64,000 nt of DNA from Eledone cirrhosa (GCA_964016885.1 OZ024742.1:159030001-159094000); one strand, 5' to 3'; shown: positions 1 through 33,666, numbered from the stretch's first letter. Translations and numbers: made by a program. Notes: a model not told the origin generated them from the letters alone.

Positions 1-601
1 ACATCCACACATATATATATGTACGTATGGATTCACCGAACATTTATTATAATGCTCGGTGTGTTTGTAAGCAAACATCCCGAATTAACCCGTACAGTGT
101 CTAGCAACCATCGTTGCTCATTTGTTCAACACTCACAAATGAACGCTGTACTAGTTTCAAGCTTATTAGCTATCGTCAGCAACGTATACCTTCCTGCCAG
201 ATGGTTGAACGTCTGAAAGTATATACTTTCCTTATACATATTAACGGCTGAACAGCCTAATTTGCATATCGAGTGAGTTAATAGGCCGGGGTACCGAAAA
301 GGATAAACGGAAAAAAATGAAACGAAATTTCATTTCTCACTCTTAGTACGGCTGTTACTTAAATATAAGTATGTATACGTACATACATATATGTATACAG
401 ACGTACAGTAGTATGCATATATATATACATACATGCACACATATATATATATGTACGTATGGATATGTGCATGTATGTATATATATATGCATACTACTGA
501 ACGTCTGTATACAGATATGTATGTACGTATACATACTTATATTTAAGTAACAGCCGTACTAAGAGTGAGAAATGAAATTTCGTTTCATTTTTTCCGTTTA
601 T
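1..601 (-). mobile_element. Hammerhead-bearing ~432-bp tandem unit (retrozyme / non-autonomous PLE-like, family A) with fold-back arm
   Basis: gtacgtatgga recurs at 21 and 453 (period 432); 303-438 is the inverted copy of 467-601; hammerhead at 143-185; ends in (TA)n; runs off the left edge. Confidence 0.75.
143..185 (-). ncRNA. Type I hammerhead ribozyme (minimal)
   Basis: Minus strand ACGTTG-CTGACGA-T AGCT aata AGCT T-GAAA-C ta G TA-CAGCGT: stem I 6 bp, stem II 4 bp with U.U closure, palindromic stem III ACTAGT, GUA cleavage triplet. Confidence 0.8.
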
Positions 602-782
602 ATATATATATATATATAAATGAAAGTAGAGAAATTAATGTGAGCAAGAAGCCAACAGTATTTCATAATATATAAGTGACTATAACGTCAAAATGGAAAT
701 ATTTAACGGAAGATATGGGAAAATAATTCAAACTCAATTCAAAAAAATATATATATATATATATATATATATATATATATAT

Positions 783-1182
783 ATGAATGTATGTATAGTG
801 TATTTGGCAATATACCGTATGTTTAATTAAAAACATTTAGAAGGCCATACGCTATTAGTTTTAAAGTAGTTACTATGTCACTTAATTCTTTTCGGCGAAA
901 GAAGGGAGAGAAGATAGCAGTCTGTTTCACGCTGGTTGGCGTTCATATATATTGCTGAAATTCTATGAGAATCCAGCTTCTGTAATTTTCGGCGGAAGCA
1001 GGGGAGTACGTGGCTCTGATGAACGCCAACCAGCGTGAAACAGACTGTCAGCTTCTCTCCTTTCTTTCGCTGAAAAGAAGTAAGTGACATAGTCACTACC
1101 TTAAAATTGATAGCGTATGGTCTTCTAAATGTTTTCAATTAAACATACGGTACATTGCCAAATATACTATACATACATTCAT
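783..1182 (+). mobile_element. Hammerhead-bearing fold-back element in (TA)n
   Basis: 783-945 is the imperfect reverse complement of 1019-1182; (TA)n on both sides; contains hammerhead. Confidence 0.75.
1001..1060 (+). ncRNA. Type I hammerhead ribozyme, canonical core, GUC site
   Basis: GGCT-CTGATGA-ACGC caacca GCGT-GAAA-CA gac TG TC-AGCT; stem I extends as GGGGAG/CTCTCC after an internal loop; predicted cleavage after 1049. Confidence 0.9.
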
Positions 1183-2182
1183 GTATACATATATATATAT
1201 ATATATATATATATATATATATATATATATATATATATATATATATATACACGCACACACACAAATATATATATATATATAAATATATATATATATATTT
1301 CTATATGTATATATATATATATATATATACATATAGAAATATATATATATATATATATATATATATATATATCTTCTGCAGACATAGAATAGCCACTAAA
1401 TTCATAAGATTCAAACCTCCGTGAATCGAACCAACATAACATAGCTTTAAATTAGGATACCTACTACCCACAGAAATATATTCATTAAGTATACTATATC
1501 CTTCACAAGTCTATACCACACAATTGTCTCTAAGTACCTCATCTACCAACAATCTTACTCCTTCTCAGCTGCTGCCATCATTTGATCCTAAATCCTAGTT
1601 TTTCTCATTTCACTACTACAATGTTACTTTACCTTCTTTTTGCCATAATTACAATTAGCACGCTTATCTCTTTGCATGTATGTATATTTTTGTACGAGTG
1701 TATATTGATGTGTATGTATGTGTCTATGTACACATGCATGTGTATATATGTGTATATATATATATATATATGTGTGTGTGTGTGTATGTGTGTGTGCGTA
1801 AATATATGCGTATATTAATTCGTTAACCTCTGTATTAACTCAACAACTATTTAGCTTTGACAGTGGTCCCACTCATGTATACTGTTGAAGATGAAGAGAA
1901 AGACTGTAAAAACTAGCTTATCTTTATAATTTAAAATTGATATACACTACGATACTTTGTACATGCCAACGCTTCATTTTGCCTTATGACAGCTAGTTTT
2001 ACACACCGTAACATTAGATACATTATATACCCCCCACCTAAGTAATGTCAGGGTCTCCTTAAATAATTTATTGATAGCATTGTTGTAATTGTTGTTATTG
2101 TTCTAATTGAATGCCATTACTACTTCATATAGTAGCCTGTATTTTCTTTTCTTTTCTTGCCTGTGTATTTTCTTCATTCTCG

Positions 2183-2295
2183 CATGCTCCGAAGATCTGG
2201 CTGGTTATAATTCTGTATTGGCGATCGAGTAACGCAAAATTAAGCGAATAGCGATCTCTAGACATACCAGTTCAGTGAAACAAATGTAAGCTATG
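2183..2295 (+). ncRNA. Hammerhead-like motif with CCGAAGA core and ~80-nt stem II
   Basis: CATGCT-CCGAAGA-[CTG..CTGGT..GATCG..CGC/GCG..CGATC..ACCAG..CAG]-GAAA-CA aa TG TA-AGCtATG. Confidence 0.6.
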
Positions 2296-2739
2296 TGATT
2301 AAAAACTTTTTTGTATAGCAAACCATGTAAACCTTCTTTCCTGATTTATATATATATATATATATATATATATATATATATATATATATATATATAAGGG
2401 TTGTTAGACCCAGCATATTTATCAATGCCAGTAACGGTTGTATCTCAGCGCACTCAATGGGCAATGTAAGAGTATACACATAGTTATTTGCCTCAACACA
2501 GCACACGTAAAACGGATGCCTATAAGGTTCTCGGACTCGAGTTTCTGCCGCACTAATGCAGCAGTAAGGTGCACTGCACCATCTGTCTGCATATATTATG
2601 CAACAATGCACAATCGGCTTATGCGACTTCATCACCGGGTATCGCCTAATCAATAACCAATCGATCGACAGATATATATATATATATATATATATATATA
2701 TATATATATATATATATATATATATATATATATATATAT

Positions 2740-3046
2740 TTAAGAGTTAAACAAGATTCAATGAATATATCAAAGAATGAGTTTTACAATAGATTGGAAG
2801 CACTCTACAAAAAATGTTTTCCAGAGTCATTAATATTATTTCAAAATATTAACAAAATAGATATTCTTGTGATCAATTATATTTTATTATACATATTTTA
2901 ACCATCTACCATGTCAGGGTATGTCATGTATAATTTTATTTTATCTGATGAGGACGTACTGTTGAACTTAATTCAGTACCTCTGAAATATGTATAATAAA
3001 ATATAATTGATCACAAGAATATCTATTTTGTTAATATTTTGAATTA
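2740..3046 (+). mobile_element. Hammerhead-bearing element, family C, with internal inversion
   Basis: Between two (TA)n tracts; 2843-2897 is the inverted copy of 2986-3041; related copy at 19492-19693 on minus. Confidence 0.7.
2938..3002 (+). ncRNA. Type I hammerhead ribozyme
   Basis: ATTTTAT-CTGATGA-GGAcGTAC(tgtTGAActtaaTTCA)GTACcTCT-GAAA-T atgt A TA-ATAAAAT; 7-bp stem I, AUA site after 2995. Confidence 0.8.
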
Positions 3047-3572
3047 ATATATATATATATATATATATATATATATATATATATATATATATATATATAT
3101 ACGTTTGTGTGTGTATGTGTGTGTGCGTGTGGATAAACGCCACTGAAATATATCGCATTTCATCATCATAACTTCAAAGCAATGATTTCGGCGACAACAT
3201 TAAAGTCAAAGACAAAATTAAAACCATAAGAAAGATATAGAAACCTGTTCAACATAATTTGGAATAGTTCAGATATTGTGAAAGTTTAGATCAAAGAGTT
3301 TAATTTTTAAGCTCAAAAGATTGGATTGATCTCCTGTTGTACTCATCTAGTAAGCTACAGGGCGCATCAGAGAACGATGAAGAATGCTAACGAGCCTCGT
3401 TGTAGTCAAAAGTTTTCGTTTATATATATACATATATATATGTGTGTGTGTGTGCGTGTGTATGTGCTTGTGTGTGCGTCTGTCTGTGCTTTATATAGAT
3501 AGTATACATGCATATGAATATTTACAAATTAGAAATCGCATACTATATGCATTATTATATATATATATACAG

Positions 3573-32074: not shown

Positions 32075-32170
32075 AAGAAATCGCTGCTTTCACCCTTAAC
32101 GGGATCTTTACAAGATCCCGTTAAGGGTGAAAGCAGCAATTCTTTGCTTGAACTTCAATCTGTTATTTTA
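32075..32170 (+). mobile_element. Family E fragment with ~70-bp palindrome centred at the hammerhead core
   Basis: ..cacccttaacgggatct-ttaca-agatcccgttaagggtgaaagcagc.. Confidence 0.7.
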
Positions 32171-32455
32171 ATATATATACATTTATATGCACAAATAGAC
32201 ATACACATATATGTCAATGTATTTTATATACATGGATATATAGATATATAATAGCTCATATGCTGGTATATATACATATGAACATACATATAGAAATATA
32301 TGTATGTGTTTATCTGTATATATACTCGTATGTGTATGTATATATGTCCATGTGTAATATATATATATATATATATATATTATGGAATACTGTTGGCTTT
32401 TTGCTACAATATTTTCTATACCTTTCATTTATATATATATATATACATATACATA

Positions 32456-32555
32456 CAGGGTGTCCCCCCAAAATGTATACGCACTTTGATTACCTGTACA
32501 GGCAATATTTATTAGCATGCTGTTGAAGTATGTATACATTTCTTGGGATAGCCTG
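32456..32555. mobile_element. Tc1/mariner-type MITE
   Basis: TA|CAGGGTGTCCCCCCAAAATGTATAC ... GTATACATTTCTTGGGATAGCCTG imperfect TIRs, in a TA-rich tract. Confidence 0.7.
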
Positions 32556-32620
32556 TGTATATATATATATATATATATATTAAGTATATGCTTGTTTTAT
32601 GGGTTTGTATGATGAACACA

Positions 32621-32803
32621 CAAAGAATCGCTGCTTTCACCCTTAACGGGATCTTCTAAAGATCCCGTTAAGGGTGAAAGGAGCGATTCTTTGCTTAAAC
32701 TTTAATTTGCTATTTTAATAAATATTTGCTCTACGGTTTTTATATATTTTTATCCTTATCGAGCCCTCTTTGGATTTTAGTCTTCACATTTATTATTATT
32801 ACT
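32621..32803 (+). mobile_element. Family E copy with palindrome 32621-32693
   Basis: Same fold-back position as 32075; downstream matches 19395-19445 and 19754-19800. Confidence 0.72.
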
Positions 32804-32922
32804 ATATATATATATCTCTCTCCAAGGAGTGTAACATGAAGTTACTGTAGGTTCACCCAGGTGAGCACTCGATGTTTAGGTTCACGTCATTGGCGAGGTG
32901 TAGAGCTAGACAGAGTGTAATA

Positions 32923-33666
32923 TAATAATACAAGGACGATTTGTTATGCCTTCATTACTTTTATTGATTGGTGACGCGCATTTCATTATTGATCAGCTCA
33001 AGGTTTGATCTGTATCGATCTGGTCCAACTACGGAATCACAAGCTCGTCGGACCTCTGCTGTTGTAATGACAGAATGAACATATAAAGCATAGAAAACTT
33101 CTGATTTATATGGTCATTCTGTCATTACAACAGCAGAGGTCCGACGAGCTTTTGATTCCAGAGTCGGACCAGATCGATACAGATCATCATCATCATCATC
33201 ATCATTTCATTTTACGTCCGCTTTTCCCTGCTTGCAAGGGTAGGACGGGAACTGATTCTGGCTTGATTTCTACAGCTGGATGCCCTTCCTAACACCAACC
33301 TCACTTACAGTGAGTGCTGGGTGCTTTTTTTTCCATGGCGCCTACACGTCCACTTTACAGTGTGGGCTGGGTGCTTTTTTGCCGTGGCACCTCCACGACC
33401 ACTTTGCAGTGGAATGATAGGAACCCCAGTCTCTATCATCTCATTTCTACAGCTGAGTAAACTGGAGCAATGTGAAATAAAGTGTCTTGCTCAAGGAAAC
33501 AACACATCACTCGGTCTGAGAATTGAACTCACAACCTTTCGATTGCAAGGCCAATGCTCTAACCACTAAGCCATGTGCCTCCAACTAACAGATCAATAGC
33601 GAAACACTTGTCACTAATCAATAAACATAATGAAGACATAACAAATCGTCCTTGTATTATTATTAT
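32923..33666. mobile_element. Fold-back element (family F) with a CCGACGA-core hammerhead on each arm; right arm interrupted by a SINE
   Basis: Arm 32923-33087 versus 33104-33186 plus 33583-33666; minus motif 32970-33054 GGT-CCGACGA-..-GAAA-T gcgc G TC-ACC; plus motif 33138-33615 GGT-CCGACGA-GCT..AGC-GAAA-CA ct TG TC-ACT. Confidence 0.7.
33187..33582 (-). mobile_element. SINE family 2
   Basis: Near-identical to 28788-29173. Confidence 0.88.

Follow-up and report, generated by a model that had tools for sequence, protein, structure and literature searches.

Hammerhead ribozymes and a preference for (TA)n as insertion target characterise the Penelope-like elements (PLEs) of the Hydra clade (Craig et al., 2021, PMC8557442). 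The same source describes inverted truncated copies and a tail of 30-40 bp at one end as general PLE traits, and tails, tandem and inverted structures of this kind as not being seen in priming of the LINE (long interspersed nuclear element) type. Its supplement includes an element from Octopus bimaculoides, Hydra-1_Obim, with a (TA)n target and a hammerhead. Hammerheads are also found in protein-free elements, the non-LTR (long terminal repeat) retrozymes, which in animals are known from mussel (350-390 nt), coral and axolotl and the mobiliser of which is given as 'LINEs or PLEs' (Cervera and de la Pena, 2020, PMC7229834). Here we analyse such elements in a 64,000-nt stretch of the Eledone cirrhosa genome (GCA_964016885.1, OZ024742.1:159030001-159094000; assembly size 3.0 Gb), below called the window.

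Further data define the background. Genomes with numerous hammerhead families, for the most part lone truncated ends of PLEs, were described together with a U3-A8 swap in the ribozyme core (Cervera and de la Pena, 2014, PMC4209133). A circular or multimeric template was proposed in that work for PLEs and in PMC7229834 for retrozymes. In Xenopus, retrozymes are regarded as non-autonomous PLE derivatives on the basis of co-occurrence and homology to the pseudo-LTRs (pLTRs) of PLEs (Li, Clavereau and Pollet, bioRxiv 10.64898/2026.07.22.740005). A repeat annotation of Octopus vulgaris (2026, PMC13282606) lists 31 recently active Penelope-like families, and its main text, as far as available, contains neither 'ribozyme' nor 'Hydra'.

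Our analysis indicates that the region is very probably an insertion pile-up in (TA)n, where the majority of hammerheads belong to 5'-truncated PLE ends and the others include three retrozymes that the reverse transcriptase (RT) and endonuclease of PLEs likely copy in trans. About 10.6 kb of the 33.7-kb stretch that forms its first part is PLE or retrozyme sequence that escapes Pfam and Rfam thresholds, which matters for annotation.

Hammerhead families and their cores

With a type I descriptor, seven intact canonical hammerhead cores were found in the window, at 179(-), 1016(+), 2945(+), 13111(-), 17788(-), 18650(+) and 19583(-). At a score of at least 10, the window gave 7 matches (6 real and one false positive) and 30 block-wise (local) dinucleotide shuffles of the window gave none at all (mean 0.0, maximum 0); at a score of at least 8, there were 8 matches versus a shuffle mean of 0.13. 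The false positive, a match at 1378(-) in a TA tract, was rejected. Variant cores are present at 2189(+), 17220(+), where GCAA replaces GAAA, 19070(+) and 19353(+), as specified in Table 1, and the cores at 12270(-), 21035(+) and 58525(-; G12A) are decayed in the window and canonical in the consensus of their family.

Consensus sequences were built by homology from 14-98 genomic copies per family and not by use of the descriptor. The sites sort into 14 families, here called A to G (the elements PLE-A to PLE-G), F1, F2, F6, F9, F10, F12 and F13, and every consensus forms three helices. Eight consensus cores are canonical, two are U3-A8, one is U3-A8 with GCAA, two are U4C and one is U4A; the cores that are not strictly canonical are fixed in the consensus in C (U4A), D and F13 (U4C) and F (U3-A8 with GCAA). 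When the core was kept fixed and the remaining letters were shuffled, the consensus score was reached in 0-21 of 2000 tries per family. This fixed-core shuffle serves as the control, and the helix pair counts, which favor all 14 of 14 families, stem from a score-optimised parse and were not used as evidence of covariation. Helix III is perfectly palindromic in only five of the 14 families. Families B and F6 are related and differ by a C3-G8/U3-A8 swap.

In Rfam, matches to Hammerhead_HH9 were found at 17735-17806 (38.6 bits), 18632-18703 (37.7 bits) and 998-1069 (24.6 bits), all below the gathering score of 52. No match to Hammerhead_1 was listed for the window, and no hammerhead model reached its gathering score. 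Rfam matches to miRNAs and snoRNAs were rejected as artefacts from TA/CA hairpins.

A preliminary description of the window had proposed a diverse set of hammerhead folds, falling in about ten families. The hammerheads are indeed real and diverse, since the canonical cores stand against none in the shuffles and the remaining sites are variant or decayed family copies; the number of families rises to 14 when genome-wide copies are used, and self-cleavage is predicted from the sequences. Shuffling, named in the same description as a control, yielded far fewer matches than the window itself, and the Rfam search it suggested gave three matches to Hammerhead_HH9, all subthreshold, and listed none to Hammerhead_1. 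Its 3' halves near 3950, 12823, 16919, 32113 and 32660 proved genuine and belong to truncated copies. On the other hand, the folds it had listed at 32970 and 33138 do not represent separate small hammerheads but the arms of a single inverted F13 insertion: the core at 33051(-) has a helix II of 60 nt, and the second arm consists of a 5' half at 33141(+) and a 3' half at 33601(+) with an inserted repeat between them.

A probable fifteenth family, absent from the preliminary description, is present at 2397-2671(-), with a decayed core near 2630(-), a helix II of about 85 nt and a palindromic helix III. Its 5' core is intact in one sampled locus (L162) and its 3' half in another (L044), and three other copies occur in the sampled loci. 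Beyond the families of the window, the genome as a whole has many others: with a widened descriptor, 553 matches were obtained in 448 loci (1.96 Mb), forming 59 clusters of which about 26 occur in at least three loci; in a 219-kb subset it gave 53 matches, versus one after shuffling.

Parent elements of the hammerhead families

Eight of the 14 families are 5'-truncated ends of autonomous PLEs, five of them Hydra-type (A to E) and three Neptune-like (F, G and F10). One more, F6, is probably a PLE end, no parent was found for F12 and F13, and only the three retrozymes F1, F2 and F9 are shown to be non-autonomous.

The open reading frame (ORF) at 15598-16836 encodes the last 412 residues of an 850-aa protein with an RT and a GIY-YIG domain, the RT half being gone. 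Of its genomic matches, 150 were scored and the top ones are 97-99% identical. At locus L031, the 850-aa ORF of PLE-A is flanked by two hammerhead repeats 5113 nt apart. The 3' untranslated region (UTR) of PLE-A extends to 13021, so the hammerhead at 13111 is the element's own terminal repeat. A further PLE-like RT/GIY-YIG ORF, of another type, adjoins a PLE-A copy at L032:2-2149(+).

For PLE-B, copies were collected by protein search, the words of its DNA end being too common for a DNA search. This element has 784-aa ORFs in 3531-nt tandems, with all 150 scored matches at 99-100% identity, and 11 of 20 loci holding the ORF end reach the window sequence approximately 1.3 kb downstream. The corresponding count for PLE-D is 10 of 19. 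With PLE-E, none of 20 loci was linked within 1.5 kb, and five of 13 ten-kb regions had a same-strand ORF about 1.9-2.3 kb upstream. That family E is a fixed 300-nt non-autonomous element was considered and rejected as a query artefact, as longer copies lead to the ORF.

The Hydra-type elements have a single ORF, with an RT and, at the C-terminus, a GIY-YIG domain. The proteins of A (850 aa), B (784 aa) and D (806 aa) have YRDD and YIG motifs, and those of C and E are partial. RWK is present in D and RWR in B and in the L032 copy of A, while DKT (from DKG) is found in A, B and D; this region is absent from the partial ORFs of C and E. All five families have a CxCX5C linker and a terminal CxH; CxxC, which together with CxH flanks the conserved residues E and N, and the lack of CCHH were judged by eye. 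By the motifs that define the clade in PMC8557442, families A to E can be assigned to the Hydra clade. They carry a terminal-repeat hammerhead and insert into (TA)n, with unit lengths of 5113 nt (A), 3531 nt (B), about 3500-3600 nt (D) and 4545 nt (E). At least five families are present, at 35-54% identity, and 646 protein homologues were found at about 40% identity. Pfam detects the RT/GIY-YIG ORFs of this type poorly.

For PLE-F, the parent ORF is reached without a TA gap in three of 19 loci, and for PLE-G in 10 of 19, in each case with one locus being the source of the query protein. F10 reached a parent ORF in two of 19 loci, and its protein is 32-48% identical to that of F. The PLE-F protein has a CX2-5CxxC linker, a GIY-YIG domain of the CCHH type (E 1.9e-7) and an RT matching RVT_1 (E 8.6e-8), and the decayed protein of PLE-G is still recognisable. 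The label Neptune-like for F, G and F10 is a motif-based one. Upstream, F12 and F13 extend into non-coding sequence without re-entering the element, with a shared stretch of at least 1 kb in F13.

Retrozymes, the insertion footprint and its possible origin

Families F1, F2 and F9 are, judged by their sequence organization, non-LTR retrozymes that are protein-free and circularly permuted. Their sequence upstream of the hammerhead re-enters the element's own 3' end with a period of 427 nt in F1, 467 nt in F9 and 316 nt in F2, and this is seen at many independent loci. Tandem runs contain up to eight units in F1 and up to three in F9. The longest stop-free frames are 76 aa in F1 and 60 aa in F9, both with a GC content of 36%, and the predicted circles of the three retrozymes fold better than shuffles at z = -10, -13 and -7. 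Matches to PLE ORFs were found upstream in three of 29 (F1), three of 29 (F9) and one of 24 (F2) loci, each time behind a TA tract, i.e., none of the 82 retrozyme loci enters an ORF without a TA break. For F9, 40 candidates were scored; their identity is about 99.5%, and they are spread over four chromosome-scale contigs. In the 18 copies inspected, the junctions are mostly different. F1 and F9 are related in sequence.

Outside the window, a fourth retrozyme of 310 nt, R4, was observed (L036, L157 and L162). It is related to F2, occurs in arrays, direct as well as inverted, with as many as 10 units, and has (TA)n at five of five termini.

The way in which these elements end was compared in 370 loci (1.59 Mb), with F10 and F13 left out of the terminus count. 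In nearly all families examined, there are two fixed 3' ends, which lie downstream of the predicted cut site at a distance of approximately 20-300 nt: +213/+273 in F1, +232/+302 in F9, +54/+149 in A, +21/+97 in B, +62/+232 in D and +57/+158 in E. Where the continuation is known, each end sits at a short internal TA-like match, and it usually adjoins genomic (TA)n. TA was found beyond the 3' end in 38/42 (F9), 45/65 (F1) and 15/36 (F2) cases for the retrozymes and in 87/104 (B), 78/91 (E), 22/23 (D), 16/18 (A), 41/55 (C) and 25/40 (F) cases for the PLEs, with 31/61 for F6. The random background is 7.9%, and a control consisting of a repeat resembling a short interspersed nuclear element (SINE) gave 11/97. 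Termini of G and F12 are mixed, with TA in 17/36 and 12/41 cases and CA/TG in 11/36 and 10/41, respectively. Most of the 19 window segments checked adjoin TA runs on at least one side.

Furthermore, inverted insertions combine one long and one short end in 58 of 60 cases for PLEs and in 34 of 39 for retrozymes (F9 19/19, F1 13/17, F2 2/3), where about 50% is expected if ends pair at random. A first count had given 79/81 for PLEs and 34/40 for retrozymes; it still included 29 loci of E that had been picked with a query spanning both ends, as well as the final 4 kb of the window, all of which were then dropped. Two of the four exceptions in F1 are low-complexity arrays, which were kept in the count. 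Because retrozymes and PLEs share this footprint of two fixed ends, (TA)n and long/short pairing, PLE enzymes are favored over LINEs as the mobiliser.

The letters just past the ends were also inspected (L260, L262, L252, L031, L088 and L105). Beyond the long end they are alike in the Hydra-type families B, D and E, with TA followed by GCTCC, and past one end of F1, F9, F2, R4 and A there is a TA-like sequence followed by CG. These letters are possibly a recognition signal for the enzyme.

As a tentative model, to which we give somewhat less than even confidence, the retrozymes would be young circular-RNA parasites without a protein, with Penelope enzymes inserting them via two-site priming: the two strands of a nicked (TA)n tract would prime on RNA of the same kind, one at a short-end site and the other at a long-end site located 30-170 nt beyond it. 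As the mechanism that would go with the main reading given above, a read-through transcript would be cut by the hammerhead and then ligated to a circle or left multimeric; every copy spans the cut site, which points to a template that is either an uncut multimer or a circle closed by ligation. The GIY-YIG domain may nick (TA)n, and since (TA)n is self-complementary, the same 3' end would be offered on both strands. Each nicked end could pair with either internal UA site and start reverse transcription there. Where synthesis stops early, truncated arms would result, joined head to head at variable points, and the arms could come from two priming events or from a fold-back. New insertions would bring TA tracts that attract more insertions. 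If true, two-site priming would account by a single rule for inversions, the PLE 'tail' and the spread of retrozymes, and PLE-B (784 aa) and retrozyme F9, each with near-identical copies, would form a ready pair of enzyme and template for reconstitution.

The retrozymes would borrow the PLE machinery, for which the youngest Hydra-type families (B, D and A) are natural candidates, none of them singled out. The preliminary description had put forward a GIY-YIG element like that at 15598-16836 as the driver. A PLE is the likely driver; the copy in the window, however, cannot be, as it has lost its RT core, and intact relatives occur elsewhere in the genome. The description's view of a (TA)n-targeted system holds for most families, with TA beyond the ends well above background, and less well for G and F12. 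Its suggestion of a non-coding ribozyme system applies to F1, F2 and F9, but not to the eight families that lead into RT/GIY-YIG ORFs.

The idea that all hammerhead families are non-coding retroelements would fit the window copies other than those of A and D, which lack coding sequence, and the missing parents of F12 and F13. We regard it as scarcely credible, because longer copies of eight families reach RT/GIY-YIG ORFs upstream, at several loci for A, B, D, E, F, G and F10 and at one for C. The reverse possibility is that F1, F2 and F9 are ends of autonomous PLEs yet to be found, their tandems being partial duplications such as PLEs make. The scoring of 40 candidates per search and the absence of a full tandem in F2 leave some room for this, but the fixed period with which, at many independent loci, the sequence upstream of the hammerhead comes back to the unit's 3' end makes it, together with the TA break before every ORF match, highly improbable. 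Long arrays (eight units in F1, 10 in R4) might instead suggest that the short units are satellites which arose from a PLE end and spread at the DNA level by unequal crossover or conversion, with no present RNA step, which is one scenario in the Xenopus preprint (bioRxiv 10.64898/2026.07.22.740005). This, too, we consider very unlikely: the copies are mostly dispersed insertions of 1-3 units with their own flanks and inversion junctions and the same two end points, and the near-identical F9 copies that were scored are spread over four large contigs.

An alternative that accepts the retrozymes as real is that they are moved by a microsatellite-targeting LINE (e.g., of the RTE, Tx1 or Dong type) and share only TA tracts with PLEs. 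Both mobilisers are left undecided in PMC7229834, L1/Tx1-like and RTE-like RT fragments are present in the window, and homology between retrozymes and PLEs is lacking. Nevertheless we find a LINE an unlikely mobiliser, as the retrozymes match the PLEs in their two fixed internal 3' ends, in a 3' end that is duplicated on both arms, and in long/short pairing, all of which PMC8557442, in the part available, describes as absent from LINE insertions. The SINE-like control, moreover, showed no TA preference.

Several observations weigh against insertion of the retrozymes by PLE enzymes, or against parts of the family assignment. No retrozyme matches PLE-A or any other of the seven PLEs tested (best E 0.076), which leaves the footprint as the one argument for mobilisation in trans. 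The footprint loci are top-scoring matches rather than a random sample, and the end classes were set from the same data. The frequent ends of G and F12 on CA/TG runs mean that targeting is not purely to TA. In F2, two hammerheads in tandem were seen in none of 22 locus-strands, despite its circular permutation, and its TA flank rate is lower. The parent ORF of PLE-C was linked at a single locus, L157. F6 is placed as an old Hydra-type PLE end by two weak matches in 19 loci, a parent ORF was found upstream of F12 in none of 19 loci, and matches for F13 in four of 24 loci were inconsistent and not accepted. Five families have cores expected to be less active (two U4C, one U4A, one GCAA, and A with a weak helix I); U4C is a known low-activity hammerhead variant (PMC3088659). 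In Xenopus, one of nine retrozyme dimers was reported to be cleaved (bioRxiv 10.64898/2026.07.22.740005).

Window features and comparison with known systems

The features that belong to the hammerhead families are collected in Table 1. Around them, an abundant SINE-like repeat of about 190 nt is found at 3560-3745, 4640-4840, 5640-5830, 12480-12690, 13440-13630, 27245-27430, 28243-28435 and 29365-29550; two of these copies lie inside hammerhead elements (F6 and PLE-A) and are thus younger than those elements. A broken L1/Tx1-like non-LTR element with endonuclease and RT matches occupies 6130-11760(-), with its 3' end duplicated and (GATA)n at the junctions. Fragments of a Helitron Rep/helicase (Helitron_like_N, PIF1) are present at 22300-26760(+). 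Numerous decayed LINE RT fragments, which we take from their motifs to be of the RTE type, lie at 41900-57400, with an RVT_1 match at 56405-57346, and a degenerate (TA)n-derived array of 3.6 kb fills 60413-64000.

Table 1. Features of the hammerhead families in the window (positions in nt).
Position	Strand	Feature	Details
1..598	-	Retrozyme F1 (427-nt unit)	Inverted insertion; core 179, predicted cut after 149; short end just beyond window
785..1188	+	Retrozyme F2 (316-nt circularly permuted unit)	Inverted insertion; core 1016
1373..2346	+	Hydra-type PLE-D 3' end	ORF tail, 3' UTR, U4C hammerhead 2189, 81-nt helix II
2740..3046	+	Hydra-type PLE-E 3' end	Inverted long end and direct short end; core 2945
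3853..4042	-	Hydra-type PLE-B 3' end	3' half of U3-A8 hammerhead, inverted insertion; covers 3' half near 3950
12165..12950	.	Family F6 (B relative)	Two arms split by SINE-like repeat; decayed core 12270(-), 3' half near 12823(+)
13021..16836	-	5'-truncated Hydra-type PLE-A	ORF end, about 2.4 kb 3' UTR, SINE-like insert near 13440-13630, core 13111
15598..16836	-	PLE-A protein, C-terminal 412 of 850 aa	Thumb, CxCX5C linker, GIY-YIG; RT core missing
16848..17038	+	PLE-B second 3' end	Inverted short end and direct long end
17067..17363	+	Neptune-like PLE-F 3' end	Variant core (U3-A8, GCAA) 17220
17453..18908	+	Retrozyme F9 (467-nt unit)	Complex inverted insertion; cores 17788(-), 18650(+)
18979..19300	+	Old Neptune-like PLE (F10) 3' end	U3-A8 core 19070
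19300..19445	+	Hydra-type PLE-C 3' end	U4A core 19353
19492..19691	-	PLE-E second 3' end, other subfamily	Core 19583
20991..21190	+	Family F12	No parent found; decayed core 21035; long end adjoins (CA)n
32070..32170	+	PLE-C palindromic 3' fragment	3' half of hammerhead
32620..32802	+	PLE-C palindromic 3' fragment	
32815..33666	.	Family F13	Inverted insertion, no parent found; U4C core 33051(-); second copy split 33141/33601(+)
58409..58580	-	Neptune-like PLE-G 3' end	Minimal hammerhead, core 58525, G12A in window copy

The Hydra-type elements resemble the Hydra clade as described in PMC8557442 in having RW[R/K], DKT and CxCX5C, no CCHH, a 3' hammerhead, (TA)n as target, partial tandems, inverted 5'-truncated copies and a tail at one end. 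They differ in size, with units of 3.5-5.1 kb with long 3' UTRs as compared to 'generally <3 kb', in the length of the tails (about 75-170 nt versus 30-40 bp) and in that several families have variant cores and a helix II of 50-80 nt. Two short hammerhead motifs of Hydra-1_Obim were not found in the window or in the sampled loci, and the protein of this element differs from those of A to E when compared by eye. Among the Neptune/Poseidon-type features reported in PMC4209133, family G has the minimal hammerhead with a palindromic helix III, and the U3-A8 core covariation is present as well, as is the occurrence of many families in one genome, with most motifs in lone truncated ends; the GCAA core of family F and the U4A core of family C are not met in the part of that work available.

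F1, F2 and F9 are like the animal non-LTR retrozymes in that they are protein-free units of 316-467 nt with one type I hammerhead, low GC content, head-to-tail arrangement and self-paired predicted circles. F1 has a U-U at the base of helix II, as does the axolotl HHR_Amex2. On the other hand, PMC7229834, as far as its text is available, does not mention for retrozymes a (TA)n target, a pair of fixed ends or inverted insertions of the long/short type. The situation agrees with that sketched in the available part of the Xenopus preprint (bioRxiv 10.64898/2026.07.22.740005) in the co-occurrence of retrozymes and PLEs and in PLE machinery as the mobiliser, and differs in that homology to the PLEs tested is absent here and an insertion footprint is shared instead.

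The kinds of element in the window have thus already been published, including a TA-targeted Hydra PLE of Octopus, and the PLE footprint of retrozymes was not found in print. The literature search behind this statement, which covered little of the subscription journals and neither Repbase nor Dfam, yielded no publication on retrozymes of octopus or on retrozymes with a footprint of the PLE type. So far the case for a mobiliser of retrozymes has been built on ribozymes in common, joint occurrence and homology, and how PLE tails and inversions arise is left open (PMC7229834, PMC8557442). What the Eledone elements add is a shared and countable footprint, which links the retrozymes with PLE enzymes and suggests a rule of two-site priming that can be tested. 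Since both types of element leave this one footprint in one genome, and young copies of each are present, both questions become directly testable.

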